From Blasia pusilla (lineage: Eukaryota), in the NCBI GenBank assembly GCA_050084515.1, contig CM114271.1, forward strand, positions 2,790,001 through 2,854,000: DNA of 64,000 nt, written 5' to 3'. The notes under the pieces were generated by a model. It worked only from the letters and a program-made list of their open reading frames with translations. It did not search any database and was not told the origin of the DNA. Of this stretch, positions 9,566 through 61,570 are shown one piece after another; position 1 is the first letter of the stretch; each line of letters begins with the position of its first letter. Made by a program: the position numbers and the translations under genes.

Positions 9566-11445
9566 TTAAATTTCATAGACCATTGCTTCCAGCCTTTCCA
9601 TATCTAGCGAAAACAGACCGAGCACGACATCGATGCTTCCATCTTTGGTGTACGATGGAATCAATATGAGAAGGCCCTCAAAAGGCACCGTTGGAGGTCC
9701 AGCGAACAGAGGAGTGCCCCATCCGAAGTCGAGCTTGTACAATGGTAACTTCGCCCAGCTCGTGATAGACAAATTAGGGGACAAAATATTCCGATATTGC
9801 CTTGCAACTGGCACTGGATTCTTTCGTTGAAGTTCCACAAAATCTAGGGCAGAGAGCATGTATTGCTTATCTACTCCTTTGATTGCTTTCTGAACGATAT
9901 CTACCGCATGGGACAGAGGATTACCTATCAAATCTTCTACAGTACACTGTGAGCATGCATGGAAGATAACATTCCCAAAGTAATTCTCTGGCAGTGGAAC
10001 CTTTCTCCTTCCACTGACTGCAACGATAGCTTTGGTCTCAACCTCTCCAGCCAACCCGCGAGCTTTCGTTATGCACCTCCACAAATGTCCAGCCAGACTC
10101 TCGAAGGTGGAGTAAAAACCATTACCCTCAATATTCTTCATTGCCTCATCTTTGATCTTCTGCAACAACTCCGCACTAAAATGAAGCTTTTTGAGGCAGA
10201 GTGGAGGGTGGTGAGAAGACTGCTCTGTCACAGGTTTAGGGGGTGATTTCTTATACTCAATGTGCTCAAAAGTTGGTTGTGGAGGATCTCTGGCCCTGAG
10301 GGCAGATCGATCATGGGTCGGGATCGATGAGAAAGGCAAACCCTTCACCGCCTCAGCCCAGGCATCCATAAAAGCGGAACCAGACGAACCGTCTACCACT
10401 TGATGATGTCGTGCTATGCCCAAAGTCATGCTCCCACACGTGAACTTAGTCACCTGAACAACGAATATAATCCCAACAAATCAACCCCACGTTGCACGGA
10501 ATGCTTGTGAATTGGACAACATAGCTCCCAAAGTTATGCTGGAATTACTATACGAGATCTTTTGTAGCAGGAAAACATGAAATTGAGAGTCCATACATTG
10601 GATCATAAACTCCACTCACACTGGCACTAAAATTCTCTTTAAAAAACAAAGTACAGAGCGTCCGCTGTCAGCCCCAACCCGAAGGACCTGACTGTACTAT
10701 TCCTAAGGTAATCGTCGATCCATATCCAGGCCAACAGACAGGCCATACACATTGAAGTAATATTCTAGCTCAACTAGCAGCAATGGAGATCATATCACCC
10801 ACTAAAGACTAATGTTGTACGTTTCGAGAACTGATAATAGCTCTCAAATGAGTCCGTGCACTAGTATCACGATACACTTGGCTGGATCCCACAGATGGAT
10901 TGCTCGACTTTTTGGAGCGTCACACATTTGCAGAGGTCCAGCGAAAAATCACATCGGTTCCCAATCTTACAGAACTGGAAGCCTCTCGGACATTTCAAAC
11001 AAAAAGGTACAGGGCTGGGAATGAATTTAATGAAGAGGCTGCACATGGCACGCACCTGGATCAACAGAAGCTCCTCCGCTCCACGATTCGGAGGCAACAA
11101 CTTCAAAAGTTCGTCACCGGGCGGGAATGGCATGAGATCCTCCAACGCAACATTGGCCTCTGCATCGATCCACGCTGCTCCTTGACCATTCAAAGCGATG
11201 ACAGGCCACCCATTGACATCCTTGCTCAGCCTCCCTGCGAATTCCTGGTACTCCTCCAGCGCTTTCAGCAGTCCACCTTCCAACACTTGCGACGAGGGAA
11301 CCGGCGCCCTAAATGCGTATATGATCTCCACATGCACCGCAGGCACCAACAAATCGCAGTTGGACAGTGCCACCGACCTGACCTCGCTCAAACCATCCGC
11401 CAACCCCACCTTTATCAGCTTCTTCGTCCCTCTCTTCACCTCCAT
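9566..11445 (-). CDS. BAHD acyltransferase, copy 2; exons 11445-11056 and 10453-9566, ~425 aa
   Basis: HHQVVD and canonical DFGWG motifs, YFGN, same GT-AG intron position (LIQ|VTKFTCG). Clear paralogue of copy 1. The ATG at 11445 aligns with the copy 1 start (MEVKRG vs MDVKRG). Confidence 0.94.
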
Positions 11446-12820
11446 CACTCCCCGATCTCCGACTACACTGGATCCAACCAACGCTTCCACAACAAACCTG
11501 CGCTTATCTCCCACTGCTCAATTCCACTTCCCTTTCATATCAATTCACCACTCAATCCATCCAAGTATCTAACTATCTGGCGGGAATACACACACAATGC
11601 GGTTTTCGGTCGTCCAAACTCACTTCGTGCATTCCGAATCTGAAGGACCGCACTAAATCTCGTGTACAGCATACAGAAATGGCCTTGAGGAAAATACGCT
11701 GAAATCACAAACCACTAGCGCACACTTCCTGGGAATTTGGCTGGGATCATAAATACGCAGCCGCATCTGATTGCGCATCTCAACGAGGGGAAATAAAAGA
11801 GTTGAAGGACTGTTGAGGAGAATCGAGTTGAGGGACTGCTGAGGTTTAAAATAATTGATCAGGGATCCGTTACCTTTAACCATGACACGTGTTACGTTTT
11901 GTGCGGTTTCCAATCGTATACAATTTGGAAGGAATTCCTTAACCTAAACCAGTTACCAGTATGCGGCCCTTTGAGAGACGGTGAATTACAAGGGGAGTCC
12001 ACGTAGATGAGAAAACATGAAACCCATGACTCTGAAAGAAACTACCATGCAAGTAGTTTAGGGCGCTCGGGGGCAACCATGTTGTATTTTATTATTATTA
12101 ATTTTATAAGTTATCGTCCTTTTCTATCCATTATATTGTTTTTTATTTACACTATGCTCTTCAAAAAACTTTTATTTCCGATCCAAATCTATCCACACGT
12201 CCGACATAATTACTTTCTCACCAACCGTGTCAAGCAAATACTTCACTGGTTTGATATTTCTCTCCGGAGCCTTAGCTAGGAACCATGGGAGCCTTAGCCA
12301 GGGTCCGGGGAGTTTTTTTCTGACAACCGGTACATTTCCGGTCTCTACAAACCGGTAATTTTCGAAGTTTTCTTCATTCCAGCCAGCTAAACAGATATTA
12401 ATACAAAGGACACCCTCCCTGAACCCTCGGTTTTTGGCCGGTAAGTGACAACCTGAATCGGGAATTTTCAAATTCTTCAACACGTAACCCCGGTTCTCCC
12501 CGGACATTGGCCTTAGCAAGCCCCTATCAAACAAAAAAACAAATACTTCCGTGGAGCTACTGCATTGACGTGGCCCGTGCCCACTCTTGGCCGTAGTAAT
12601 ACATATTGGCGAGTAGGAGGTGACGTTGAGGCAAGACTCCTGCAGTAGGTGCGGAGTCACGGCGGCGGCGCGGACTCTTGGCGCTATTAATCCGGATGCC
12701 TTCTATAATATTAAATGGTATACCTTTATTATGGCCAACTCATACAACCTTTCCACATGTACTCTTCAATGCTTCATTCACAGTTTCTTCTGACACTAGG
12801 TTCTTCCCCTGTTGAATGCC

Positions 12821-16879: not shown

Positions 16880-19221
16880 TTAATCAGTCACTATACTTTT
16901 TGTGTTGTCTTTGTTTAATCCACATGTATTGACGCAATCGTTATCATCATATAAGAAAGCATCCGTATCATCATTTGGCTGTGACCCAAGGTCCATATCT
17001 CCGACATCTTGGTTTAGTTTCTCCATGAATAAAGCACGCATCCCACCCTGCATTGTTCCTCGCTTTGTTCCTAGCGCCCTTACAATCTCCTCTGCAACGT
17101 AGCCGCACATGAGCGAACACTTCACTTGATATTTGCATATGTTACCCTTACAGCTCCAAGGGCAATCGCATGTACAATATTGTCATTGGAAATTGTGTAC
17201 ATCATATACAATCCCTACTGTCGTCTGGCTTTTCACCATAGCCATTGTCGATGATGAGATGTCGCAATCTGAGTCAGGAATGCATCTTCCTTTCAACACT
17301 GAAGCACGAACCACTTTTTCCTCATATTCGTTATCATAAAAACCAGCATCTTTACATAATTGTATTTGGTGGTAGAATGATTCCACTTTCTGCATCAACT
17401 CATTCACCAACCAATCACAACATCGAGCTGCCAATTGGTTGTTTGTCTCCCTTAGAACAAGCTTCATATTTTCGTGATATGCTTCAATCGACGCATTCGT
17501 GTCCATGTTGGAATGATTGAAGGTGCGAACCCCTTTCACCCACATGCCTACAGAAGCATCACATTTGCGATAGATAAGAATTTTTAATTCTACCACCATG
17601 CCAAGGAGTACTGAAAAACACATGTACAAGGGAGGGTATGACAAGCATTTACCAGCTTTCTGTTGCCAAGTCGTTTCTATATAATGCATGAATTTTGCCT
17701 CTGAAGAAAAATCCGTGTATTAATCTCTGCTACTGAGCAATATGTCATGATGCAGCTTGGGCTCCATGGTTTGCCTACTTCCACTTGGCGAGCATAGCAA
17801 ATTTGAGAATGGCGATTGACACCTGCTATTCTCATTGCCTCCAACCATGGTGTAATGTCAGCTTCTTTGCAAGAGTTTGTCAAAACCCACGCTATTGGGA
17901 TGCCGTTGTGGAATTTATCATACACCATGATGATATATAAGGGGAACTGTGAAAGATCACATTACATGTCAATTTAGTACTACAAATAGGTGAACATATA
18001 TTACAGTTTGAATTTCATAAAACACACAATTCAGCATGGCAATGGAATAGACTTTAGGGCCGAAAAGTACCTTATTCTTTTTAGTTCCAAATGTGGAATC
18101 TATGCAAATGATGTTGTCATTCTCATGTTCCACCAATCGAACACATCCAATCTGACCAAAACCGAGTATGAACGGACACTCCTTGCTTTGGTAAGGTTGG
18201 TAAAAGAAAACCTCTTCCGGATACAACATCACGTAATTTGCAATCCTTTGATTCTCATTTGAATGCCAGAGCCAAGACTCCATTGCAATATCTCGTCTCA
18301 AGTTTTGGACGTCTTGGAATCGCACAAAATCATCTTTGCGAAATTCTATCAACGAGTCCGCATTTTGTCGTGTACGTACTTCTTGGCCCAACTTCCTTAC
18401 AATTGCCATATTTGTCTTCTCTTGCCATATCATGTCCAATATCTGAAGCTTCCTACCACTCGATAAGCGGGGAGCATGGCTGAATGTAGCACCCTTGCTG
18501 AATATGTCGTCTAATATGTCACAACATTCACCAAGTTTGTCTGTGTGTGCTCGCTGGATGTAGGTAATCTTCGCGCAGTGGGGAACAAGAATCTCCATTA
18601 CGCTGAAATGGCACAAACACCCCCTTTTTGTACTTTCATCTCGAGCCTTCCTATGGTGCCGAGGCCTGCTTACCTTGCCGCTTGGATCGCTCTAATATCT
18701 ACTCAACATCCACTTCACAATAAGTAAGTATACATTAGGAGAGGTTCAGGCAAGTATAGACATACTATTCAAGTGGTCCATATCATCTCAACTCCAGTGG
18801 ATGGAAAACAGTCACACCTTATATCAACTGGTTGGCGGTTTCCCCTGTAATCTTCTAGACCATAGCAACAGTGATACACTCTGTACCACCCCTCGTTACT
18901 TGCACCCCTCGCCTTATACTCTCTACGAACTTTTTCTGTCTTCCTTCGTGAGGTCCGCTCATGTGGAAAAGGTACATTCTTCACCCAGAAGTTTGTGCTT
19001 GCACACCCATCTCCATGTCCTTCCCCTTCTAAGAAATCATCGAGCCGTGCCCATGGAATGAAAACGATGTCACCCTTATCCCACGGCGCAAGATCATCGT
19101 AATTTAGCAAACCCGATGGCAAAAATTCTCTCACTGGGATCTTGGATATGGCAAGGATTTGGTTCACGATATCAAGACGGGGTTTGTCCATCATTGGGTT
19201 TTGAATACCCATTGCTAACAA
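16880..19221 (-). pseudogene. MULE-type transposase with C-terminal SWIM zinc finger; spliced, disrupted
   Basis: FIPWARLDDFLEGE, YHCCYGLEDYR, KRGCLCHF, VFFYQ...PFILG, CIDSTFGT, FPLYIIMVYDKFHNGIPIAWVL, TNASIEAYH and CDCPWSCKGNICKY (SWIM, H>Y). Resembles from memory the Arabidopsis At4g13970/At1g60560-type proteins. GT-AG introns, stops and frameshifts. Confidence 0.85.
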
Positions 19222-19699
19222 CAGGCCAAGATGTTGTTAGCAAGCCTTAATGTACATGATCTGTCCCAACACTCCTACGATTGAAACATCATCCCCACCT
19301 CAATGGTTGCAAAAAACTCAGAGTATGCACAGAACATTTAGAATGGCTCTAAGCTACATTCAAGGAGATGGCTGAGATTAGTCCAAGCCGGTGTAATATT
19401 CGGGGATTTAAACCCCACTACAAATCAGTACACGTAAAAACAAAATCAGGATAAAGGGAATGCCAGCCCCCAAACCACTTTCTAGGCCAAAGCAAAAAAA
19501 TTGAACATAAGCATTCAAATTGCTGAATGAGGAATTAACATCAACTTAAGGACTCCGTACATTTTTTATTGGACACAAGTACTCACTCTGACACTCGTCG
19601 AAACATAATATAGACCCCATGGACTTTCAAGTGTTCTTTCCATGGAATTCTGAGAAAATACCCTAAATACCCCTACTGGACGAGTACCTATAAGTACCT

Positions 19700-23889: not shown

Positions 23890-24260
23890 GCGTCACTCAT
23901 GTTTGACGCAATGGATGCTGTTTATATTGCTTGTAACTCGACGTTGCCAGGTGGTAGGAAATGCAACAAGCGTTGGAACCAGATATTCTGTTCCAAGTGC
24001 GGGACACATAATCTTGATTATGCCTTCTCCTACAAGATGCGGGTATATGCTGAAGACTAGGGTTGCAGAATTCAATGCACAATGTTCCAATATCTAGGGA
24101 ATTCTTGAAAATGGAAGCAATCGTCTTCCACAGGTTGACGTTGGAGGAGGAATGCAAGGTGTTGGCACCATTGCAAGGCACTCACAGGCCCATTTCCATA
24201 TCTAAAAAAGTGACGGCTGAAGGTGAGTACCCCATTTCTTCATATATTATCGGAGGCATA
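23890..24260 (+). pseudogene. RPA70-like C-terminal OB-fold / C4 zinc-ribbon fragment
   Basis: VYIACNSTLPGGRKCNKRWNQIFCSKCGTHNLDYAFSYKMRVYAED*GCRIQCTMF fits the RPA1 pattern Y.AC...CNKK...C.KC...Y.Y....I.D..G....T.F. Stop and frameshift present. Confidence 0.7.
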
Positions 24261-25099
24261 ATGGAGGGCCAATCTGCTAGCCCTCTAACGCCATTTCCTA
24301 CCGGAGAGTATGAGCAATCTACTTTTAGTGGGGCTCTCGCCTTGTCAGATATAAGCAGGACCATGGGAAGTACAGTAGTCACAACGAGAAAATGGGTAGA
24401 TGTGGGGGTGAAGGCTATCCCAAAATCATTATTGGAAGAGGACGATAGAGGTGCAAATGTGTTCCATTTTTGTATTTGTAAAGTGACCGTGATGCAGTAC
24501 TTATGCATCATGTCATTGGTGTTGGTGAACTTGATATTGCTGAAATGCCTACTCCGGTGACAGACATAGTAGGGTATACAAAGCCAGGAAAAAGAAATTG
24601 GGTTTTGAAAGTTACTAGAAGCTTATGGATGGGCATACGGATATTGCTCAGGTTTTGGTCGGTGATATGTGCAATGGGAAGGAATGATTGGCGGATTATC
24701 CCTAAATCTTGTACAATCACACCCACTGTTGGACAATGTTGAAGAAATTCAAACTATGCCTTGCATATGGATTGTATATTTTGGATATGTTGGTTGGATT
24801 AGGCAGGATTGAAGTGTGTTCTTAAGTGAATGCTTGTTGCGGCAAGAAAATAAGCAAAAATATGATGAATTGATCTAGTACATGGATTGCTCTGGAGTTT
24901 TGGATTTCATGACTGAAGCAATGTAGGATCCTAGTTTTCTGTGTATGGGGAATGCCTCATGTACGAAGGCCAAGCAGGTTTGCAGACTCTGGGATTGGAG
25001 TCTAGCTAGGGCACATACCATAAGAAATTGTTACACCAGGCAGGTTTGTAGAGTGGATGGAAAAAATCTGGAAAGAGCACATAGCCTAAAAAAATGGAA

Positions 25100-26260
25100 A
25101 AACCAAGCAAGTTTGTACATTGTGGGGAAAAATAAACTGTGAAGGCACAATGCATATGTTGTTAAACCCTCGAAGGCTAAATATTCATCGTCACCTAAAC
25201 CCCTGAACTGTAGACATGTTGTACCGCCGATCTGTAGAAATTCATCATCATTGTGGAAAGTAGGAAATGGAAAAGTCTTGAAGGACTCCTTTGCACTATC
25301 TACATGATCTAAAGATTCAATCCAGGTCTGCCCTAAAGGGAATGTGTCATGTACCTCATAAATCTACAACTTTAGGTTTGGGGTTGTTGGAAATGGAACA
25401 GTCTAGAAGGAACCCTCTAGAATGTCTCCATGATGTGAGGATTAATTCCCTAATGTGATTCTGTACCCCATAACTTTGAAAATTGTGTAGTCCCCGATCT
25501 ATATGAATTCATCATCATTTACATCTTCCATTTGGGATTGTTGAAAATTCTTGCCCACGTGTTGTGAATCCGGGAAGGGCACTTGGCCAAAAAAAGAGGA
25601 AAAACCAAGCAGGTTTGTAGAATGTGGGGGAAAAATGTGTGTAGGAAACAATGCATATGTTGTTAAACCCCCGAAGGCTAAATATTCATCATCACCTAAA
25701 CCCGTGAACTGTAGACATGTTGTACCCCCCCATGTGTAGAAATTCATCACCATTGTGGAAAGTGGGAAATGAAAAATTCTTGAAGGACTCCTCTGGACTG
25801 TATACATGATCTGAAGATTCAATCCAGACCTGCCCTAAAGGGAATGTGTCGTGTACCCCATAACTCTAGAACTATAGGTTTGGGGTTGTGGGAAGTGGAA
25901 CAGTCCAGATGGAATCCTCTGGATTGTCTCCATGATGTGAGGATAAAATGCCTAATGTGATTCTGTACCCCATAATGTGATTATGTATCCCAGAACTTTG
26001 AAAATTGTATAGCCCCCGATCTCTACCAATTCATCATCATTTGCGGGAAGCGATTTGGGATTGTTGTAAATTCCTGCCCAAGTACTATGAATCCATTGAC
26101 AGGCTACTGAGAATGTTGGAGTGGATAAAGCTTTAGGGTTGTGGGAAATAGAACAGTCTTGAAGGATTACTCTGGACTGTCTCCAAGATGCGAGGATTGA
26201 ATCCACATTTGCCCTAAGGGGAATGTATCATGTACCCCAGAACTCAGAAGTTGTCTAGCC
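25100..26260. repeat. ~500-bp tandem duplication plus a partial third copy
   Basis: aatgcatatgttgttaaaccc..gaaggctaaatattcatc at 25149 and 25650, colinear for ~400 bp. Partial copy at ~26130-26270. Confidence 0.85.
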
Positions 26261-26628
26261 CCCGATCTCTAGAAATTGATCATGTTGTTCTGGGATGCAA
26301 TTTCAAATATCAGAGTGTTATAGAAGATATCGTGCGTGTACACATCGCTACACAATATACATCGCTATCACCAAACACACACAATCCCATGCTAACTCAT
26401 GGCATCCATACATAGAGGCAAGAAGTACCAAAATATCTCCAATTGCCCCCTAGCTGGTGGTTAGGTCCCTCTAACTCTAGATAGCCATCTATCCCTACCT
26501 ATCACGACATACATCTCTAGGACGCTAAGAGCAGAAAGACCGGGTGCTCATGTGGCCCCATCGTTAGTCGTCTTCCTATCATCCATGTGACAAAAAAACT
26601 CGGAATCGAAACCTACCCAGTATCTCCT

Positions 26629-26770
26629 CTATGTACATTGGGGACACATCCATCATCCTCGAGGAACCCTAGTGAGAGGCGGCGTCAGACATGCCATATG
26701 CCACCCTCTCGAACATCCATCATAGACTAGCATCATGGCCGCACCACGGGCAAAACCACACAACATACAA
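26629..26770 (-). pseudogene. PHD finger at the integrase C-terminus
   Basis: CMLC...LVYDGCSRGWHMACLTPPLTRVPRG*WMCPQC fits C4-H-C3, with the third Cys changed to Tyr and one internal stop. Confidence 0.88.
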
Positions 26771-27870
26771 CGCAAGCCTGCAGGAACTACTGCTAAGCTC
26801 GGATCTATTATACCATCAATGTTAGGAAGGTGACATGGCGCACAATTACGCACATGGTCCTTCCAAACCATACCATCGCGTCCCTCCAATAAGAGAACAC
26901 CAGATGGCAAAACTTCACGCACTCTCAAGATGGTGCGCCCTGCAGTCACATCCAACGTCGTGGATGACGTCTGCCGCAAGTAGACATAGTCTCCCTGATG
27001 AAACCTCCAGATAGTAGGTCGATAACCACCTCCCCGAATAGTCGCATACCTCAACGTATCCTGATGTTGCCCAATCGCCAAGTTCTCAAACGCCATGGGC
27101 ATCACTCTCCAAAACAACTCAGCCCTCTGAGAACATGCTCGCATCCATACATCCGGGTCATCAAGGTCTAGCATCTCGACCAATGGCCGCAGGTAAATCT
27201 AGCTCTCGGCCATAAAGTAGCAAGTACGATGAAAAAGACGCTAAGGATGCCTGCCTGCTGAATCTGTATCCCATCGCCAACCACGGAAACTAGAGGTCCC
27301 AATCTCCTAGGTGACCTCTCTGCAAGCCATACTTGCGTAAACCCCTCTTCACCGTTTGCACAACTCTCTCCGCTAACTCATCCGCCTCGGGATAATCTCG
27401 CAAAGTCGTGCGGTGGTCGATCATCGCCTGATCACACAAGGCCTGGAACTCACCGCGAAACTTGGTACCCTGGTCTATCAACACCTCAGCCGGTGCGCCA
27501 TAATGACTCAACACTCTGTCAAAAAAGGCATAAGTTACTCCCTCACTCGCTTTGTCAGGCAATGCAACCAACTCGATCCACTTCGAGAAGTGCTCGACCA
27601 TCACCAACACATAACGACTGTGACGCTCCATCAAAGGCAAAGGTCCTGCAAAATCCAAACTCCATCTATACCCTAAGCCCATGATCAGTAATGGATGCAA
27701 CTGTGAAGTCGGAGAATTAAACAATGCTCGGACCCGATCACACACCATGCACTTGGCAACAAACTGATGAACGTCAATCTGCATGCCTCGCCAACAATAC
27801 TGAATCTGGAGCAAGCTGTACATCCGCTTCATCCCAAAGTGACCCAACTCCTCGTGGGCATGCTGCACTA
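26771..27870 (-). pseudogene. Gypsy integrase
   Basis: HHCC finger HEELGHFG...CMVC. DDE core WSLDFAGP / VLIDQG / AERVVQT. C-terminal GDYVYL...VREV. Confidence 0.92.
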
Positions 27871-28259
27871 GTCATGCTCTCTCCAAAGGATGCGGCACTA
27901 CGCGTACTCTGCCATCCAACCAAACCCTCAAAACATGTATCCTCTCCCAACGGAACCGTCTGGCCCGTTGTAGGATCCGATCCCACTCTCAAGCACCCAC
28001 GGTGCTCGAAACGCTGCCAATACAAAGGTACTCCAAGACTACTCCATCATCATGAATATCTCGGCCACTTGTCGTCTCCTCACTGGCCTCGGGATCCAAG
28101 GACTCTCCACTAGACCTCGCCATCAAAAGTCTCCACACTCTGGCTCTCCATAGCCAACATGCCTAAATAGGCTGACGAGTGCCATCCAGGCACTAACTCC
28201 TCATCACTCTCTCCATACCATCGAGCTCCAGTCGCATCTCGCTGACTCAACCCATCTGC

Positions 28260-29600
28260 ATCCTGGACATGGGTTACGACTCAACCCATATGCATCCAGG
28301 TTGAGCATCCCAGGTCTATGTACCACCTGAAAATCATACTCCTGCAACAACAGAGCCCATCTTGCAAGCTTCCCTATAAGCTTGTCGGACTCCATCAACC
28401 ACTTCAATGGTTGATCATCAGTGATGATGGTAAAGGGGTTGCCGAATAAGTAACAGCTGAAATGCGCGACAGCCCACACTACATCCAAGCACTCACCCTC
28501 ATACGAGCTGTACTTCGCCTTTGCAGTGTTCTTCAAGCGGCTAGCGTAAGCCACCACAAACTCTCTACCCTCATCATCATGCTGGGTGAGCACCGCTCCA
28601 AGCCCCAACATGCTCCAATCTGTGTGCAACTGGAAAGGACGCCCCCTGATCGGTCTCCTCAAGATAGGCGTGGACGTCAACCTATCCTTGAGCAATTGAA
28701 ATGCTCGCTCATGCTCATCCCCCCAATGCAACTCGTGATCCACCTTGGTCAGCAAGGTTAGCGGCTTCACAATCGAACTGAATCCCTTGACGTACCGCCG
28801 ATTGAAGTTCGCCAATCCCATGAATGCGCAAACACGGCTCACATGTGTAGGGCGTGGAATGCGTGAGATAGCCTCTACCTTCGTCTGCTGAATACCAAGG
28901 CCCCCTGGGTATATCGTATGACCCAAGTACTCAATCTCGTCGTAGAAGAACTTTCACTTGCTTGGATGTAGCTTCAGCCCATGTAATTGAAATCCTCAAA
29001 ACACCTCCTCTAGATGTCTCTCATGCTCCTCAACCGACTATGATGTCATCAATATAACACCTAGCAAAATCCAGACCACCAAGATCCTATCCATGACCCT
29101 ATGAAACTCAGTTGGGGCGTTCTTTAACCCAAATGGTAAGAACCGCCACTGGTACAAACAATCCTTCCCGTGAGGATCGATGCCCCAAAATGCCGTCTTC
29201 TACCTGTCCTCCAATCTCATAGGCAGTTGATGGTATCCGGCTTGCAAATCCAATGAACTGAAGATCTTTGCGTGACCAATCGCATCAAAGATCTCCTCAG
29301 GGGTGGGCATGGCACACCTATCGAACTTCGTCTGCCGATTGATAGGTCGATAATTCCCACACATCCGCCTATCCATCCAGTTACCATGCACATCCTTCTT
29401 GGCGGGCATGATAGTGGCAGATGCAAACTCCCCATGCGGCATCTCCACTAGACCTGCTCCGACCAAGTCCTAGCTCCTACTCTGAATTAGAGCCCTCTCC
29501 ATATCATTGTACTTATAGGGTCGTCGGAAGATCGGCGTATCACTCGACAACTCAATGCGGATCCCCGGTCCCTTCAGCGTACCCAAATCCTCCATGCTAA
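28260..29600 (-). pseudogene. Gypsy reverse transcriptase and RNase H
   Basis: FRRPY, RMCGNYRPIN, FSSLDLQAGYHQ, KTAF, LPFGLKNAP, YIDDII. RNase H: LHTDWS, VAYASR, YSSYEGEC, ITDDQPL, ARWALLLQEYDF. Confidence 0.95.
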
Positions 29601-30039
29601 ACGCAAAGCAGCTCCTATAACTCCTAAGGAACTGATGTATCTGGCGTCGCTATCCTCCTGTTAACTTAGGGCCCATATCTGGCTCCCAAGTCTCCATCGT
29701 GACTACGGTAGGACTCTTTGGCGTGGTATCGGTGGTTGCTATGGTGCAACCCCGTCTCGAACAACAACACTCGGCTGCTCTCCTATAGCCAACTGAAAAA
29801 TCTGATCTCCTCCACATGCAGTGCACAGAACCACGCTGGATGTTGTGGCTATCATCTCCTGGCGTACCTGCAAAACATCCCAAGAAGTCCAAGGGTGTCT
29901 CTCCTGATCTCCCATGGTGTGTAGATCTCCTCGGGTCTCGCCCCCAGCCACTGCCTCCACCGTCTTGGTAGGCATGGGGCTCACCAACGCAACCACTATT
30001 ATCTATCGCGATCTCATACGACCCTGCTCAGCCACTCCC

Positions 30040-30990
30040 AAGCTGAGGATCCATGTCAAGCAATTCAGGTCCATCGCCTGACCCAAGACATGGCGTCGTG
30101 ATGCCTCTTACATTGACAGTACTGCCGTCACTCCTGTGGGAAATCCCATCGCTCGCTCTCTCTCGTCGGCGTTGGGCCCCACCAACCGTTGAACCAGGTC
30201 ATCCCAAACCAAGCCAGGACTGGCCTCCTTGTATGCATAGGAAGCGGGAAAACTCACAAACATCGGCAAGACTGCCCGCGGCCTGCCTACCCTATTGACC
30301 ACAGCCAACGGTGGTCGATCATCGTGCCTCACTACGTGTGATCGATGACCTGGATCCATAATGGAATCCACTAACAAATGGGAGGGGCGCTCCACTCTCG
30401 CATACGCCCTCCGTAACACCGCATGGGGCACCAAGTTGGTCCACCAAAGACGCGGGCGATGGGCTCTAGAACTTACACTCTCCGAATCCAAGAACACTGT
30501 TGGGCCAATCTAGGCACGCACCTGATGAACAGTCATCACCACCCGTGATCTAGAGTCTCCTAAGATCGGCACATTCTCCAAAATGTAGGCTGGAGAATGA
30601 GACTGGTGCTCCTGCAAGTGCCGTAAGACCCTCAACATCTCCCAAAACAATCTAGACCAAGTGTCAGCCAACCCGCTACCTCGTCCAACACTCGATTGGC
30701 CCTGATATGGCCAACCGGCAATGACCAAATCAATAATCCCTACCCACTCTAAATCCTGCGCCCCCAACAACGAAATATCCCTTGGTAGGGAACTCTCGTA
30801 CCCATGTACCGCGGACGCACACAATAAGTTGGGAAAACGTAGGCGTAATTATGCCACATGTCGTAGTGAGACGTGTCTGCAACATCATCACTCTCCACAT
30901 ACATGTATTGCTGTACTCCCACTCGTGCCTGCAAAACAGCAACTAACCCGGTGCTAATCCCTCCAAAGAGATCTAACACTCGAACACCCT
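30040..30990 (-). pseudogene. C5 cytosine DNA methyltransferase domain embedded in the Gypsy polyprotein
   Basis: Motif I VRVLDLFGG; II YVESD; III DI; IV DLVIAGWPYQGQS (PCQ>PYQ); V SRLFWE; VI YILENV; VIII AHRPRLWWTNL; IX ERERAMGFP; X RRHVLGQAM. All in canonical order. Confidence 0.9.
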
Positions 30991-31378
30991 CCTCCAAGGT
31001 ACACCACACAATGGGTGTGGTATCCAAGGGTGTCATTGTAGCACTCATTGCCACCTCGGGTTCCTCAGACCCATCACGCTCCGGTTCAAACGCCTCGCTC
31101 TACGCGGTCTGCACGTGCTCATCTGCCAATCGTCGAAGCTCCTCAGTCAAGCCCCACAGCGGCACCTCTCCTCCACATAATGATGTGGCTACCATAACAC
31201 TCCTCTCCATAGAAATGTCAGGAACGGGAGTATCCTCCGTATGGACATGTCCCTCAATCAAATCACTAGGCCAAGTGATGGCACTGCTAAATGCTGCTAA
31301 GGTCGCCATCTCTCCTGGCCGTTGCTCGATCACTACACCTATGAATCAAACGGGTAATGAGCTAAGGCGCCCATCACC

Positions 31379-31720
31379 TCACTGCCATCTTGGTCTGTAG
31401 GACGCTGACTCCTCCCAGTAATCCAGGGCAAACCTCATCGGGTATAACACTGCTCCACCAACCAAGACGTCGTAGGACTTTGCATCAATCACTATCGCCT
31501 TGGCTCGCACCACGGACTCATCTGTAGGATGTCCCGGGAAAATCCTCACCGCGACCTCATGTCGAGTGATATACTGTGTGGTACTCACTCCACCCAGGGA
31601 TGTCTGTATCCGGAATGGACAACGCTCCACATCGGCTCTCGTCAAGCCCAATCCTCTGAATGACGCTTTCCCCAACATCAAGGGTTGTGCTCTTGAATCC
31701 AACAAGACGCGCTGCAGACT
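31379..31720 (-). pseudogene. Retropepsin-like aspartic protease
   Basis: RVLLDSRAQPLMLG (DSGA variant), flap-like IQTSLGG and YDVLVG. Located between gag and pol. Confidence 0.7.
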
Positions 31721-32616
31721 AAAAGCTCTACCTCCAGGACTCACCAACTGGTAGACCTCTCCTCGGTTATCCAGCAACACAACACCAGGAGAAGCCATGG
31801 CACGCTCTATCGTGGGTCTAGCAAGCATCTTCGCCATCCTAGCAGCTGCAGTCTGCCATGAATCTGACGTGGACGGCCCGAGCATGTGCTCCAAAGGCAG
31901 GTCCATCACCTCCTCTGCAATCACCTCTGAACGTGATGGAAGAACTTCAACTCCATGCTCACATAGCGTAGCCGCCAGCCGTAAAGCCTCCGCGGGCGTA
32001 CCCCCCAACGTCATAACATCGGAAGCAGAAAATAAAGGAGCGCGGTACACAATGGTGGCCGCCCCCAACAACGTGCTCAACACATGCCCCTCATGAGCAT
32101 CAACAATAGGAGTCTTCGCACTCGCTTCTCCCATTTCCCTCCGTGCTTGCACACCAACAACATCACCAACTCTCCAGGAACTCTGATCAGGACCCATCGA
32201 TGGGGTCCTCATCGCCTTGGACAACGTGCAAGACTGAGGAAGCCTAGTCTGTTTCCTGGCTTCCTCTCGCTGTGGATCCAACTCTGCAGCTGCTCCACAT
32301 GTCACAATTGCGGCTGCCTCCATCTAGACAACCCCGCACATCCAACCAGGATCCTCCATATCTCTGGATGCTCCATATGATGTCGATGCCACGGATCCGA
32401 CATCGGGTAATCTCAATGCCATAGCGGCAATATGCTCATGTAGCTGATGTATCTGAGCAGCCATCCTAGCCTCATGCCCGGCCTCTCCCTCGACGCGTCT
32501 AGGTGATGGGACTCTATCTCCTCCACGGGAAGCTCCACCACCCTGTCGGGCAACTCCAGCTCCTCATCCCCCAACGGAACCACATGGTGTACGATCTCTA
32601 GGCCCACTCGGACCGG

Positions 32617-33740
32617 CTACTTGCTCTGGTGCCCTCTCTGGCCCTCGGTCCGGACGTAACTCAGGATGTAAAATGAAACACCTCGCGTGTATGTATGACC
32701 ATACCTATGACAATAGTCACATTGATAACCTCCTTGTGCAGCACCATCTCCTCCTCCATGCTGAGGCACACGTCCATGACCCTGACGAGTCCAATCGCGC
32801 TGATGATGGGCTCCACCACATGACCAACAAGTAATAGTAGGCGGTTGTTGTTGAGTCGCATATGAAGGCGCAGGTCTCTGTGGCACGGCCTCCCGGTATC
32901 CTCCCTGAGCTCTTGGTGCCACAGTCGACCTATCTCGGAGTCCACATTGTTGCACAGGTAGTAGGCAATCGTGACTACTCTCGCCCAGAACCAATGGTGA
33001 CTACGCTCTCCTCCGCCATGTTGTGCTCAATGTTCTTGGCAGTCCTAAAAACATCTCTCAACGTAGGGGAGGTGTTCATAAGAAGCACCCCCTCCCGCAC
33101 CCGTTTTTGCGGGGTCCGGTCCACCATCGCATACCATGACTGGATAGCCTGAGCCTTTGTCACCCCTTGAGTGACGTTGATCAACCGGCGCAAGCGAGTG
33201 TAAGCCTCACGCAAACTCTCACCCCGACGCCTCTGGAAGTCATGGATGCTCCGCATCTTCTCCATCCGTACCCCTTGGTAGCTCACCCTCAACTCAGCAA
33301 AGAAATCAACCATCGGGTTGAACTTGGGACGAACCCGACTAGACGGTGCAACTGCTCCAGGGCGAGTGACCCCTCCTAAAACATCACTAGTGGAAGAGGA
33401 AGTAGCCTCTCTTGACTTCTCTTCCTCATCTAGGAACGGCTCCGTCATTGACACATAGTGTGGGTCATAGTAGAGTCACCATGCCTCAATCTCCTAGGCA
33501 TATCTGTGGGAGAACTCATGGTTATCGTCCATGGGCACCCCCCCTAAATGTTGGAACATACCATTCCATGTTGTAAACGGGTTGAACTCTCTAGAGTTCC
33601 TGGCCCGCTGGGAGTCACACCAACTCCTAAACTCCGCAATGAAGTCATGTAGCTGTATGGTGCCTACAGCACCCAAAAACCTACGCGGTCCTCTACCCCG
33701 GTCGTCCATCTCGTACGCCAAACTCGTAGGATCACTCAAT
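32617..33740 (-). pseudogene. Gypsy gag with zinc knuckles
   Basis: FQRRRGESLREAYTRL (major-homology-region-like), CWSCGGAHHQRDW and CDYCHRYGH knuckles. Confidence 0.75.
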
Positions 33741-35538
33741 GTGTACGGTGGATCACTAACAAACTCCTCTACATGCTCCCCCTCGTCTGAAGTGACAAAG
33801 AAGGAGATCGAGGTGGTCTCTCACGTGGAGACCCTCGAAACCTCGCACCACTCCGGGTAACCCTTCTAGAGCTACTCTCAGGTTCACTACCTCGCCTCTC
33901 AAAATCTTGAAAGGACGCCGTGATGGCCCTCATGCCCCTCTCACACGATCACTCTCAACCTCGTGAGTAATCCCTCAATCACTCATCCCAAACATGTGCC
34001 ACTCGATCTACACTCTCCCTCCCCAAGACATGTAACGTGCGGCAATAAGCGGCGTGGTGCGGCAAATCGACCAAGCTATCATCTCATCGACAACCTACCC
34101 TCAACTCCAAACATCCCACACAGGTCTATGTCCCCTAAACCACATACATAAATGATGCTCTCAGCAACCACACAACCCAATATCCCCAAATAAACTACCA
34201 AAATCCCAGAATCCCTCACGCGTACAAGGTAAAGGACCAGAATGGGTAACCTGAACACATGTCGATGTTGCTCCTCAGCAACTGCAAATCTCGACCCCAA
34301 CTCGGTCATGGAGATAACTCCTCCAATCAGCAAGTCATACTCGTCCCGTACTGACGTTGCTCAAAACTCCTCGATGGACAGTGCGGTTCCAACAGAATGG
34401 TGCGGCGTTGCAGGCGGTACAAAACGGCTACGAACGACACGGCCCTCGATGGTGGGATGCAGCACTCGGCAGCATACCCTCCTCAATCAACAATAAACCC
34501 ACACTCTGCTCCAAAATGACGGTGCAGCTCCACGATTGAGAAGGTGCGGTGCGGCCACAAGTGGCACGGCGCGTTGTGGCTACGGGCGTCACGGCACGGT
34601 TCTCGATTGTTGTCGAGCAGCTACCAATCACAATATAGCAGCATGAAATCAAAACTCAAACACCATAATCGGAGGTCATCTACCATCACTGGTTGATGAT
34701 AAAACTGCGATGATGGTGGCGGCCAAACCAAAGTACGTGGTGGCGGCGCAAGTCAGAGAATCAACGGTGGTCGTGGAAGACCCTCCACTTCGTAATGGCA
34801 GCAATGGCAACCAAAGGGTGGACAACGGCCGAATGCAGCTCTGAGCAATGTTGGGCAACGGCAACGGCCGACGGTGGTCGGTGGCCGGTAGACGGTGGAC
34901 CGTTGACCGCGAAGATTGACCGTTGATGGTGACGACGGACCGTTGACGGTGACAGTGACAGTGCTCCGTGGATTACGACTCCCGTATCATGTGTCGGCTT
35001 CAGATTGACCCTTTTTGAGAGCCCCTTCAATAGTAGGGAAGGACCCACTGGCAAGAAATGTTGAAGAAATGGTGAAGGGGGGGAGGGGGGGGCGGAGTAC
35101 ACGACGTGTACTGTCTAGGGATAGGAAACACAGCCTTGGAATTTATTGCTAAACACGTACGCAATCAATTGCATCTAAACCCGAGATATCCACTAAAACC
35201 CGCGATTGGGGCCGGATTCAAGAAATGTCCTATGAACTGGATTTTGGGCATATTACCGCTAATGTTATCGGCCAGGCGTGAGGCTATGACGGGATTAACA
35301 TCATTACCACATCCTTTCCCATCACCATGACGATGATCATCACCATCATGCATCATCCATGAATCAGTGTCTATGGGTATGGTATCCGCATATCGATGCC
35401 CATATATGCCATCGACAGCCATGGCGATGCCACCCACACTTGACAATGCCGACATCACAACGCGCGCAGCTTAGGGTCTTGGTGCGAGAAAGTGCGCAAA
35501 TTGATCAGATTGATGCCTTTAGGGTGATGCTGGTTCTT

Positions 35539-36270
35539 GTTTGACGAAGGAATGACAGTCGTCCATGCGATAGAGACCACGAAACAAACGGAGAAAAAAA
35601 GAAGGTTCTTAACATTGAGCCTACAAATTTCTCCTCATGGTTGAGTAATCATCTTGATTGGCAGCAGAATGTTCAATTCTATTTCACTCATGCGTCCATA
35701 CACTTGTTTGGCACAGAGGTTGGGCGGATATTAGGGTAACTTTGCAGACGGAGAAACATTGGAGACGGCCAGGGCTACGTTGGTAAGATAGTCGTTCCTG
35801 TGTGTACGCCTTGCATTTCTAATATTTTCCTTGCATCGGGATTTTGTAGTGATCGAATTGAGCAACGTTCAAGTGCGCGAATTCATGGAATTGATAGAAT
35901 TTTGAATCTCATTGAGGCACGAGGCGTTGGATGCTGTTTGTTGTTTGACGGAGGAATGCCATGGAATGTTGTAGTAGAGACCACGAAACAAACGAAAGAA
36001 AGAAGGTGGAGCACATCAACATCATCCCCCCAAAATTTCCGCTTCATGCGTGAGGAATCGCCACAGGAATCATCCTCAATGTTTGCAGAAAGTGCAATTT
36101 TATTTCATTCCTACATCCATACACCACGGAGGTTGGGTGGATATTAGGGTAACTTTGGACACGGAGGAACATTGGAGACAACCAAGGCAAAATTGGTAAG
36201 TGAGTCGTTCATGTGTGTACGCCATGCCTGTATGAGTTTTTCCCTGTACCGGGTTCTTCCTTGCATCGTG
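35539..36270. repeat. Two-copy direct repeat, period ~400 bp
   Basis: gtttgacg.aggaatg...tagagaccacgaaacaaacg...ggatattagggtaacttt...tgtgtgtacgcc starts at ~35540 and ~35943. Confidence 0.8.
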
Positions 36271-36950
36271 TTTTCATAGTTAAAGCGTTATGGTCATCCG
36301 ATTGGCGCTAAGGGACCAGAAACACATATAAGAAATTTGGCACTCCAATATTGAACCTAAGCTTTTTCTACGCTACTTTCATGTCCTGTGATAGCCTCCA
36401 TATAACCCTCGTCATCAAATTTAAGTTATAAACGCAAGGAGAAGGGAACCATGGTAAGTTCCCCAAGGGAGCAAGCATCCAAGACTTTATGTACCCCTTG
36501 CAACCCTCTTTCAATCATTCTCGTCTTCTGCTTGTTTCCATTTTTTTGTTTTTGAAACCTAGACATTCTTTAGATTAGCGCCATAAATGCCAGGCTAGGT
36601 TTGGTTATAGCATTTGATAAGTAGGTTGGAGGCAACCAATTTTTACGTATAGGCCCATCTTATTGCGCACCAATTTCTAGTGAATGTCCGTAGCCTACAT
36701 GCCACACAGTTTCTGTATGGAGGAAGAACAGTGGTAGAGGAACATAAGGGTTTAGGGTGAAGGATCTGGAAATTGAATCTTACATGGACATGTGGAGTTG
36801 TAAATTACCGCTTACAACCTTCCAAATTGCAGGGAATGTCAGGGAAGTCTAGAGAAATCATGTTGGGCTATTCCATTTCCTACTTCCCAACCGTTTTTCA
36901 GTAGCTCGTAGTAACGTTTAGTAGCTCCCTAAATATTGTTCAATCATCTT

Positions 36951-38884
<1,934 letters not shown>

Positions 38885-58388: not shown

Positions 58389-60640
58389 CTAGTATTTGGT
58401 TAACCCTGAGTGATGCACAAGTTCTCTGACTGCAGAAGCAAGTAAACCTAGGGCAGCGACCATGTTTTCACCTTGCTCCCGCCTAAGATTCCTGTTCAGC
58501 TCATTGTTTCGATCATGGCAATCTATGATTCTATCTACCATAGAAGACATGTACAGAGAAAATCGGTCAAGAGAATCCGAACCACCCTCCTGGCTCTCAT
58601 GCAATTGTTCTTCTGGCCTTTGAGCAGGTTTTTGCTCCGCTTCAGTAGCCATGACTGTCTCATGACCTACTACATTCCGGTCTGTCTCCTGACCACCTGA
58701 ACTCTGGGCTGTTCCCGGACCTCCGGCATTCCGCTTCCGCTTTCTTCGTACGGGAGCTTCATCTGTAGCCGATTGTAGGCCTGCAAAGTCAAGTACCCAA
58801 GAGCTCAACTTAAAACGCTCCTATTTTCTAAAACCCCTACGTTTCATCCACACAGCTTTTTCAGCCAGGAAGGATGATTTTCTCGTCCAATAATCAGCTG
58901 AAATTCAGAGTGCTCCCACCCAACACCCAATTCCCAATCAGACAGAAGGCCGAAAGTTTTTTTCAATCGTAGTCATGATGCGGTAAGCCTAAACCTTTGT
59001 TGCTCATGCTCCGTGATAGCAAGATGGCAGACACATAAAAGATACGCTACCACTATTTACAAAGTTGCTACATAAATCCAGAATGCAAAGCATTTTCAAC
59101 CCACTAACATCCCCAGTAGGTCTACTACGACTTCCACTACGAGCAGGTGTGGAAATCGAAGGAAGAAAAGAAATTTGGGAAGAAGAAGTTACATCTCTTC
59201 CAGGTATCTTCTTCAACGTATCTGAAGATCGACGTTCATGATATCAAAACGGCTGTAGAAATTTCAAACATCTTAAACTCTCGCTCTATGCATCCAGCGA
59301 ACTAACTTTACTCAGGAAACTGGGATGGACAAACCGACACACACTTACGGTTTTCCTCGGGAGGTACCATTACCTCCTGGGAAATAAATTTCCAGTCTTC
59401 CAGCTACGTAAACAGTTCATCACATACAAGCCATTTGATCAAAGACACTGATAAGAGTATCTCAGAACAAGATGACCTGAAACATGGACTGGCAAAGAGC
59501 TGTCCCTCCCGCCGCTAGTGTCCACTGATGACCTCATGCCCCCTTTTGTAGGGTACACAGAAGCGTTTGCTTATAAAAGCTCTAACTGCGGCTATCCACA
59601 TCATCTCAGCAGAATTCCATGCCTCCGTTACTGTGAGCAGACGTGTCCTTATAACATTCCGTGCCTGATTTAGGTTAGAGACTCTGCGTTTGCACAGGCG
59701 CGTGGACAGAGGTCTTTCTTCAGAGCTATGCGAGTCTTAACAATGTCTGAAAAATTTTTGACGAATTGAGTTACTTCCATTCCCATAGCCCGCGCCCCAA
59801 ACCGCCACCGCCACCAAGAAGCCCCAGACATGCAGACAGTTTATTTATTCTTTCTTTCTTACCATGTTGAGGCAGCGCAGCATCGTCCGGCTGTGGGAGA
59901 GTTGGTTCACTCCCTAAGGGTGGAGCTAATGGATTGTCTAACTCGGCATCGCCCAATTTAGGGTCCAATTCGATTCTCCCCGCGAGAAATGAATCCATTA
60001 CTTTCCAAATTCCTTCATCAAACCCAGCCGGTAGCCTCTTCGCCCGCAAGTCCATTCCACCCATCAACCAGTACGACTCCGCTCCATTCAGCCGCTCCCA
60101 TTCCTTAATTTTCTTATAGGCTGTCAGCAAAGTGTTCCATCGCTTCCTGCACTGGAAGCTCGTCCTCTGCACGCCATGATTGCAGCAAATCCCAGCTATT
60201 TGCTTCCATTTCGCGTCACCCCCTTTCACCGTCGAAATTGAATCCTCCTCTATCTGCTTCTTCGCTGTCACCAGCACCATACTCTCATGACTTGTCCACC
60301 TATCTCCCTTCCACCTCTTCTCCCCTTTTCCAGCCTCACTCCTCCCCTGCCCATCTCCTCCGCCACCCCCATCACCGCCACCAACTCTCTCTCCCCTCTC
60401 CTCCTCCTCCTCCATTTCCAATCGCTGCTCATGCCGCGCTCCTGCAACTCCATCTTCGGATCCGACCCTCCCTCCTCCTCCGTCGTGACGAAATTGCACA
60501 TCGCCCGGCAACTGCAAAAGCCGAGCTGGTGTCGAGTGGCCTTGCTGATGGAGAAGCAATGGCAACAGTCCGAACACAGTTTTCCCTTCGGAATCACAGT
60601 CTTCGCCCGCCCCTCTCACGTCCCTCGACGAGCCAGCCAT
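58389..60640 (-). CDS. Trihelix (Myb/SANT-like) transcription factor, ASR3/SH4-like; exons 60640-59863 and 58780-58389
   Basis: RWTSHESMVLVTAK...KWKQIAGIC...QCRKRWNTLLTAYKKIKEWE...SYWLM...LPAGFD. The GT-AG intron keeps the frame (QHG|LQSA). NLS RRKRKR and C-terminal helix LGLLASAV. Confidence 0.9.
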
Positions 60641-61570
60641 CGCCAGGGGCTGGGCCAGACTTCCAATAGCACAGTGCCAGAGCCCTGAGCCCTCGCGTCC
60701 AGCCGGTGATTCCTACGTGTTCTCCACCGCCTCCGGACACGTGTATCGCGTAACCGGAAACGGTGTCGCCAATCGCCCGCTCTTCCTTTGCCCGCCTCCT
60801 CCCCCCCACCGGCTACCGGCTCTTGAGCAGAGACACGAATATGAAACCGTGACTAACTAGCAACACCCCTTCTTGGCACTAAAACTCGCGATTAGCGCTA
60901 ATACACTCCTCGTTCTACTTCATAATTCACAACTCACTAATCCCCTACTCGCACTAAGCCTCTCTCAACAAGTGATCATCATCGGATTATAATGGTGCAA
61001 GTCCCCTTCCAAAAACCGGATTAGTCTAAACCAGCTCGACTCGTTGGTCCCCATTCCTCTTGAAGCGGAAAAAAAAACCGAAAGGAAACGATAATAATCT
61101 CCTCCACCGTCTTCCTTCAGGGACCTCATTAACCTCAGGAGTCGGTAGAGGGGATCCTAATCGTAGGCATTAACGCACCCCATGGGCATGCCCAACGCTC
61201 CCCGTAGCTCTAGGTAGGAGGAAGAGGAGGACATTGGGCGCCGATTTCCCCCTAATTGAAAGAGGCGTTTCCTGACGCTGGATGTTGGAATCGACGGTGC
61301 ACAGAGCCTTGCTAATACCTGCAATACCGCCGTCTATTGTGCGTGTTTTATTGAGAGCGACACCCGCGCAAATCGTACAGGGAGCTGGTAGCGCGCAGTA
61401 CGGGGAGACTGCCATGAAGAATGGGAGCCTCTCGTCCTCTCGAATGGAACCCGCGATACGAACCGTAGGACTTCATCACATCGGCGCCCGCAACACGATT
61501 TCGACGTCATAAGCCCTCGAAAATAATATGGCCTTAGATTGGGTTTTATTTTTTCAAAGCAATTATATAA

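Follow-up and report, generated by a model that had tools for sequence, protein, structure and literature searches.

The textbook example of a transposon that reads chromatin is integration guided by chromodomains, which tether chromoviruses to H3K9me chromatin. A stretch of 64,000 nucleotides from contig CM114271.1 of Blasia pusilla, referred to here as the window, raises the question of whether a retroelement may carry another kind of histone reader at the end of its integrase and combine it with a DNA methyltransferase. A first-pass annotation, made from the sequence alone, had read an integrase in the window as ending in a C4HC3 PHD finger at 26629-26770, had supposed that the same element brings its own methyltransferase, and had suggested that integration may be targeted by histone state. 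On balance, we favour an explanation in which the window holds a remnant of a Gypsy family with a PHD-bearing integrase and a DNMT3-like methyltransferase, in whose members the PHD finger would tether the integrase to the histone H3 tail and the methyltransferase would methylate the new DNA.

A decayed Gypsy-type retrotransposon in the window

The region from ~33820 to 26328 on the minus strand is one copy of a decayed Ty3/Gypsy-type retrotransposon. Pfam and tblastn searches give the domain order gag, protease region, DNMT3-like methyltransferase (DNMT), reverse transcriptase (RT), RNase H, integrase and PHD finger (Table 1), and tblastn searches of the window with three relatives (P0023, P0018 and L007) produce co-linear matches. 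The Pfam domains of a Gypsy pol (PF00078, PF17917/PF17919, PF17921 and PF00665) occur in the expected order both in the window, where PF00078 (RT) is represented by a fragment at 29041-29199, and in the relatives. Pfam detects the PHD finger and zero chromodomains in the window and in 11 relatives, which sets the element apart from chromoviruses. A second copy of the element within the 64-kb window was not found by blastn with 24000-36500 as the query.

Table 1. Features of the Gypsy-type element in the window.
Feature	Position	Strand	Evidence and remarks
gag-like region, decayed	32620..33820	-	tblastn, L007 ORF1 residues 67-296 against 33712-33116: 25% identity, E 9e-11
Protease-region homologue	30875..32059	-	tblastn, L007 ORF1 residues 571-975: 31% identity
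DNMT3-like C5 cytosine methyltransferase, decayed	30024..31003	-	frame change near 30850; motif IV catalytic Cys replaced by Tyr
RT and RNase H	28207..29766	-	PF17917 (E 2.6e-32) and PF17919 (E 3.8e-31), both on 28207-28953
Integrase zinc-binding (HHCC) domain and catalytic core	27293..28150	-	ORF 27293-27871: PF17921 (E 3.3e-13), PF00665 (E 4.5e-12)
Integrase C-terminal (SH3-like) domain	26770..27198	-	ORF 26656-27198; aligns with the C-terminal domain of relatives
PHD finger (C4HC3), decayed	26635..26769	-	ligand 3 is Tyr; in-frame TGA at 26655-26653
Polyprotein stop TAG	26631..26629	-	one codon (Thr) past the last PHD Cys; proteins of relatives in this clade stop 1-13 residues past the finger
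3' untranslated end	26328..26628	-	terminus at ~26328, ...GCACGATA

The relative L007 is nearly intact. Its second open reading frame (ORF2) matches the window over the RT and RNase H part (residues 7-530 against 29766-28168, 56% identity in tblastn) and over the integrase (residues 524-849 against 28150-27182, 59% identity). The upstream half matches L007 at lower identity (Table 1); Pfam gave zero matches on the gag-like region of the window. The putative protease of the window is assigned by homology to the protease-containing part of the relatives' ORF1; in L007 this part holds a D-S-G motif and a weak aspartyl-protease match below the cut-off (PF13650, residues 708-757, E 2e-4). The segment 30027-29653 was also considered as a protease and rejected; the weak protease match of L007 lies upstream of the methyltransferase.

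In the tblastn comparison with L007, the reading frame of the window copy shifts five times from the protease region to the PHD finger; the copy as a whole has five or more such shifts, in addition to in-frame stops. The integrase core (ORF 27871-27293) and the C-terminal domain with the PHD finger (ORF 27198-26656) lie in different frames, unlike in the relatives, where they form a single ORF. With these frame changes and stops, the loss of the catalytic Cys of the methyltransferase and the broken PHD finger, the window copy is a dead fossil without function.

The PHD finger of the window copy

The ORF at 27198-26656 encodes 181 residues, the first 140 of which correspond to the integrase C-terminal domain and the remainder to the start of the PHD finger. 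The C-terminal domain translates on the minus strand as ...HVRNCAPCHLPNIDG..., directly before the finger, and the C-terminal domain and PHD finger of relatives map to window positions 27183-26632 (tblastn). The finger itself has the spacing C-x2-C-x11-Y-x2-C-x4-H-x2-C-x10-stop-x2-C-x2-C, followed by Thr and TAG; the residues read C-M-L-C, x11, Y-D-G-C, x4, H-M-A-C, x10, TGA, W-M-C-P-Q-C-T, TAG. Seven of the eight zinc ligands are therefore present, the third being the exception, and the TGA falls between ligands 6 and 7. The first and last Cys codons are at 26769-26767 and 26637-26635, and together with the polyprotein stop at 26631-26629 they show that the borders given in the first-pass annotation were exact.

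A search with the PF00628 profile supports the assignment for the family and leaves the window copy below the threshold. The open part of the window finger matches profile positions 1-34 of 47 with E 4.3e-4 and 20.7 bits, short of the Pfam gathering cut-off of 24 bits, whereas all ten relatives scanned score 33.7-46 bits and L007 scores 40.6 bits. Because the family fingers exceed the cut-off that the window copy fails to reach, we consider the window to hold a decayed member of PF00628. The motif at 26635-26769 is not due to chance, as judged from the relatives that the 181-residue ORF retrieves: it matches 45 longer proteins with E-values down to 1.9e-90, and 40 of these contain PF00628. A regular expression finds the intact C4HC3 pattern in 31 of the 45. 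The C4HC3 PHD finger at the integrase C-terminus is thus confirmed, in decayed form in the window and intact in relatives.

The PHD finger as a family feature

An exhaustive search of cluster representatives (50%-identity clusters) yielded 1,420 matches at E<=1e-3 and 191 at E<=1e-30; among the 150 of these 191 that were listed, nearly all extend into the finger, up to the end of the query. The integrase C-terminal domain is present in 264 of the 270 proteins collected, and an intact C4HC3 motif follows it in 229 of these 264. The count is to be read with the sampling in mind: the family was assembled from sequences similar to the integrase C-terminal domain with its PHD finger, so that presence of the finger is partly built into the sample. 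In the family the PHD finger is a 45-residue C4HC3 motif, in frame and at a fixed distance past the integrase C-terminal domain. Within the window's clade, 1-15 residues separate it from the end of the protein.

The finger is part of long uninterrupted ORFs of 1,000-3,400 residues with the order RT-RNase H-integrase-PHD or DNMT-RT-RNase H-integrase-PHD. ORF2 of L007 (1,047 residues), for instance, contains RT, RNase H, integrase and PHD finger in one frame. Single ORFs from RT to PHD place the finger in frame with the integrase at the family level, and the out-of-frame arrangement that the first-pass annotation had allowed for is not what is found. Most of the 79 loci collected from metagenome contigs are decayed; nine retain one ORF over the C-terminal domain and an intact PHD finger.

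An AlphaFold model of the relative P0002 (mean pLDDT 71.4) contains a catalytic core, a long helix, a small beta domain and a confidently predicted C-terminal finger region. The small beta domain follows the core at residues 270-320 and is the counterpart of the C-terminal domain in the window. Foldseek with this model retrieved the PFV and Ty3 integrases; among the matches listed for the whole model there were integrases only, which carry no information on the PHD finger.

Named hosts include Marchantia polymorpha (78% identity), Calypogeia fissa and Sphagnum fallax, and among chlorophytes Tetrabaena, Gonium, Volvox, Pleodorina and Astrephomene, as well as Chromochloris zofingiensis, represented by a gene model. 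As judged from these sequence matches, the family is large and belongs to the green lineage, with members in liverworts, a moss, and volvocine and other chlorophyte algae.

Several of the named matches are host gene models on decayed copies (Marchantia P0003 and P0006), and the window copy is itself non-functional, which could suggest that the PHD finger is carried along as a neutral passenger, or appears only because gene models connect a PHD exon of the host with the remains of a transposon. The genomic ORFs described above run unbroken from RT or DNMT into the finger, which argues against a joined exon. The constant distance between the finger and the integrase C-terminal domain, and the zinc ligands kept in these 229 proteins across clades at 37-78% identity, speak against a passenger. 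The sequence evidence thus largely refutes this reading, which we regard as very improbable.

The methyltransferase and its position relative to the PHD finger

The methyltransferase is recognised in the window by PF00145 (E 2.1e-8, ORF 30513-30848) and by tblastn with the DNMT regions of P0023, P0032 and L007 (34-46% identity). As in Gypsy-DNMT3 elements, the PF00145 domain of the window and of the relatives is embedded in the Gypsy coding region. Motif IV reads ...IAGWPYQG... in the window and ...IAGWPCQG... in L007; of 77 DNMT segments of the family, at least 80% retain the motif IV Cys, and the same holds for ENV and for HRxR. In the PDB, the P0023 DNMT is most similar to DNMT3B, DNMT3A and DNMT3C (E 1e-6), ahead of the bacterial HaeIII. 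A sequence search with the DNMT region of P0023 as the query gave four matches only. The supposition that the element brings its own methyltransferase is borne out, for an enzyme of the C5 type, by the PF00145 matches in the window and its relatives, with DNMT3A, DNMT3B and DNMT3C as the nearest solved structures.

Because the family was assembled from sequences that resemble the end of the integrase, its members were not selected for a methyltransferase. Of 89 proteins that span the RNase H-integrase junction, 62 have the DNMT between these two domains, three have it upstream of RT, and in 24 the ORF contains none. At the DNA level, 22 loci of the window's clade are informative, and in 20 of them the DNMT lies upstream of RT. 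In an unrooted integrase tree, a clade of 25 rows (SH-aLRT 98) holds 19 of the 24 rows that have no DNMT between RNase H and integrase, together with all five rows with DNMT upstream of RT, the window included. Given this placement and the 20 of 22 loci, most of the 24 proteins that appear to lack a DNMT are ORFs that start past it. Altogether, PHD finger and DNMT occur together in about nine of ten informative members, and the co-occurrence across the family that the first-pass annotation proposed to look for is therefore found in most members.

Two domain orders can be distinguished. The window's clade has protease-DNMT-RT-RNase H-integrase-PHD. In the second order, RT-RNase H-DNMT-integrase-PHD, a tail of another 100-360 residues lies past the finger. 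DNMTs from either order show homology to that of the window (34-38% identity). The DNMT tree has long branches and does not distinguish one origin of the DNMT positions from two. The tail after the PHD finger, seen in P0029, P0032, P0039, P0040 and others, has zero Pfam matches.

In the window's clade, the two domains are mostly encoded apart. ORF1 of L007 (1,369 codons) comprises gag, protease and DNMT and ends at a single in-frame TAG, after which ORF2 follows (L007:976-8229). Eight or nine independent protein clusters begin with a Met 4-31 residues past the corresponding boundary point, and P0023, P0177 and P0185 read straight through it. Most members of the clade thus have the DNMT in the gag-protease ORF and the PHD finger at the far end of the RT-integrase ORF. 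The first-pass annotation had described a reader plus writer in one retroelement. Both domains are indeed in the element; direct coupling is not indicated, because the two sit far apart, one towards either end of the coding region, and different ORFs encode them in most of this clade.

Element termini and surroundings

Direct repeats flanking the window copy, or long terminal repeats (LTRs), were not found by a repeat search or by blastn of 24000-36500 against the window. Homology of the 3' end to the relatives L001, L003, L004 and L006 reaches 26446 in blastn and extends to ~26332 in local alignment (score 184, against a maximum of 37 for shuffled sequences). These four copies end in ...GCACGACA or ...GCACAACA. 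The 5' end of the window copy was not found, as local alignment with the 5' end of L006 scored 31 against a shuffled mean of 33.6. A search of the window for the 17-nt terminal motif with three mismatches allowed returned one unrelated site, no better than expected by chance.

The closest relatives (L001, L003, L004, L006 and L045) define an 8,641-bp unit that starts with TGTCATG... and ends with ...GACA (for example L006:2196-10836). Their TG...CA ends and 4-bp target duplications correspond to integrase-type insertion, and a terminal repeat was not found in these relatives. A more distant subfamily (L036:1913-11264) has split direct repeats, with A1 at the 5' end and B1-A2-B2 at the 3' end; B1 forms the end of roughly half of its copies. 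Termini resembling those of DIRS and Ngaro elements on an integrase-bearing Gypsy element raise the question of how the cDNA ends are made.

About 2.5 copies of a ~500-bp tandem repeat (25065-26303, 83% identity between units) adjoin the 3' terminus of the element. On the other side of the element, a (CA/TG)n dinucleotide tract at 37192-37716 grades into a related hexamer-like repeat. Two plant-type BAHD acyltransferase genes are located on the minus strand at 475-2448 and 9569-11517 (PF02458, E 4e-62 and 4e-58). Each is divided between two ORFs, presumably by an intron or a frame break, and the pair probably arose by tandem duplication. Three consecutive minus-strand ORFs of 155-240 residues at 17186-19236 have zero Pfam matches at E<=1e-3 and may belong to another decayed mobile element. 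An ORF at 59774-60712 on the minus strand encodes a Myb/SANT-like (trihelix-type) DNA-binding domain (PF13837, E 1e-11).

Reader class of the PHD finger and its possible role in integration

A comparison of the P0002 finger with PDB structures, in which the best 60 matches were listed, gave PHD2 of CHD4 as the closest match (E 1.6e-18), with PHD1 of KDM5B at 8e-14, and KMT2C, PHF12, DPF3, PHF21A, ATXR5, KDM5A PHD1, KAT6A, UHRF1, AIRE and BAZ2A/B among the other near matches. Fingers of the ING, BPTF and TAF3 type were absent from these 60. We take the PHD fingers of CHD4, KDM5A/B (PHD1), PHF21A, AIRE and others to bind the H3 N-terminus with K4 (or R2) unmodified. Among 182 family fingers compared, 168 have Gly two positions ahead of the zinc-binding His, and 166 retain the Asp that follows Cys3; the position directly preceding the His is occupied by W, Y or F. 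The position two before the His is presumably that of the cage Trp in H3K4me3 readers. Since the finger is closest to the former reader class and lacks the cage Trp, the preferred H3 tail would most likely be unmethylated at K4. Targeting by histone state, as suggested in the first-pass annotation, is plausible because the closest solved fingers are those taken above as readers of the unmodified H3 tail.

The two clades differ in the loop between Cys2 and Cys3, which has on average 1.0 acidic residues in the window's clade and 2.29 in the other clade. The less acidic loop in the window's clade indicates that specificity may differ between clades, or that H3K4me0 may not be the ligand. Several marks are read across the class of PHD fingers, and the finger of the element could instead recognise H3K4me3, H3K9me, H3K27me or an acetyl-lysine combination and steer integration to another chromatin state. 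Besides the divergent loop, the double PHDs of DPF3 and KAT6A among the close matches, which we take to be readers of acylated H3K14, would fit such a preference. However, the PHD finger of the element is single and not a tandem DPF, the ING, BPTF and TAF3 types are missing from the best 60 matches, and Gly occupies the presumed cage-Trp position in nearly all family fingers. We therefore consider recognition of another mark quite unlikely.

We hypothesize that in active members of the family the PHD finger takes over the role of the chromodomain and would tether the complex of integrase and cDNA to nucleosomes, a proposal made by analogy with chromoviruses. Tethering would proceed through binding of the N-terminal tail of histone H3, most likely with K4 unmethylated, and new copies would land away from active promoters. 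The DNMT3-like enzyme, produced from the gag-protease ORF in the window's clade, may then methylate the new DNA, as proposed for the KnitGypsy-Dnmt3 elements discussed below. If correct, a PHD reader on an integrase together with a transposon-borne DNMT3 would offer a natural system for the study of landing-site choice and marking.

It is also conceivable that the PHD finger has no role in the choice of target sites, and instead binds a partner other than histones, contributes to assembly of the intasome or to nuclear retention, helps the element to evade silencing, or acts on its DNMT by recruitment or regulation. The targeting role is argued from the analogy with chromoviruses alone, and the accessible text of two papers on Chlamydomonas elements mentions only a possible role in chromatin remodelling (PMC9940879, PMC8557442). 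The joint occurrence of DNMT and PHD finger in about nine of ten informative members would likewise fit a functional link between the two, although their location in different ORFs in the window's clade argues against a finger that serves the DNMT. Against a finger without a targeting role in general stands its position, at the site on the integrase where chromodomains direct integration (Gao et al. 2008, cited in PMC6673714), and the closest solved relatives are histone-tail readers. We consider a role outside targeting unlikely, and retain tethering to the H3 tail as the preferred explanation.

Comparison with known systems

The closest described elements are the KnitGypsy-Dnmt3 elements of the charophyte Klebsormidium nitens, Gypsy elements with a DNMT3 (de Mendoza et al. 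2018, PMC5890265). These have the Gypsy domain set with a DIRS-like arrangement of repeats in place of ordinary LTRs; their DNMT catalytic motifs are conserved, and methylation of new copies by the enzyme was proposed (PMC5890265). The family described here resembles them in the combination of Gypsy domains with a DNMT3-related methyltransferase within the coding region, in a streptophyte host, in having relatives without LTRs or with A1...B1-A2-B2 split repeats, and in the conservation of the DNMT catalytic motifs. It differs in that it reaches liverworts, a moss and chlorophytes, and in having two DNMT positions. From this comparison, made by description, the family and KnitGypsy-Dnmt3 may belong to the same lineage. 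Klebsormidium is absent among the named family matches, names being available for part of the matches only. The term "PHD" has zero occurrences in the main text and three of the supplements of PMC5890265.

Other sources place DNMT3 within retrotransposons of streptophytes and dinoflagellates (PMC12344493), and a 2026 preprint refers to 'streptophytes (Gypsy-DNMT3)' (10.64898/2026.05.21.726589). According to a 2019 opinion paper, land plants such as tracheophytes lack transposons that encode methylases (PMC6338049), a statement that the decayed copies in bryophyte genomes narrow.

PHD fingers are a common accessory domain of transposable elements (PMC8557442, PMC6673714, 10.1101/2021.11.30.470311), and PHD and Chromo domains are often fused to RT and integrase (preprint 10.1101/2021.11.30.470311). 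The first-pass annotation was right in supposing that such fusions may already be known, as a PHD finger is part of the Gypsy polyprotein of Gypsy-7a_cRei from Chlamydomonas reinhardtii, an element with LTRs (Craig et al. 2022, PMC9940879). Its insertions are 2.6-fold in excess in intergenic regions, and targeted insertion was suggested as a possibility (PMC9940879). Compared by description, Gypsy-7a_cRei shares with the present family a green-alga Gypsy polyprotein with a PHD finger; it differs in having LTRs and, according to the figure legend, in the location of the finger between RNase H and integrase and in a domain list without DNMT. Other PHD-bearing elements of C. reinhardtii have been reported (Craig et al. 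2021, PMC8557442), including REM1 (Perez-Alegre et al. 2005, as cited). Within the literature covered, which leaves out most subscription journals, we found no report that links a C-terminal integrase PHD finger with the Gypsy-DNMT3 lineage or places this lineage in bryophytes. Both Gypsy-DNMT3 elements and Gypsy elements with a PHD finger have been published, and the combined picture of the family is only partly documented. The joint occurrence of the two domains in about nine of ten informative members, the two domain orders, the liverwort and moss hosts and the LTR-less relatives may be useful to the field of transposon-encoded methyltransferases.

With chromoviruses the family shares a small domain of the histone-reader type at the C-terminus of the integrase, after the C-terminal domain, and tethering to nucleosomes would be common to both. 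The PHD finger replaces the chromodomain, the likely ligand would be the unmodified H3K4 tail and not H3K9me, and the window element carries a DNMT, whereas we know of no chromovirus that does so. Examples of such chromodomain-bearing Ty3/Gypsy elements are MAGGY and Tf1 (Gao et al. 2008, cited in PMC6673714 and 10.1101/2021.11.30.470311).

The first-pass annotation had also drawn a parallel with animal DNMT3. Animal DNMT3 enzymes couple a PHD-like reader of H3K4me0, the ADD domain, to the methyltransferase. The parallel holds in so far as a DNMT3-type catalytic domain and a PHD finger that resembles readers of unmodified H3K4 occur in one genetic unit. It is weak as a case of coupling in a single protein, because RT, RNase H and integrase, and in most members of the window's clade also an ORF boundary, separate the finger from the DNMT, and ADD or PWWP domains were not detected in ORF1 of L007 by Pfam at E<=0.1. 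We speculate that the pair of PHD-bearing integrase and DNMT3-like enzyme predates the chlorophyte-streptophyte split, survived two placements of the DNMT, persisted into bryophytes, and reads H3K4me0 for landing while writing 5mC on its own copies, a scenario that is unlikely to hold in all its parts. If it did, the family would represent a transposon-borne, split version of the animal ADD-DNMT3 logic, in an LTR-less, integrase-dependent Gypsy lineage.
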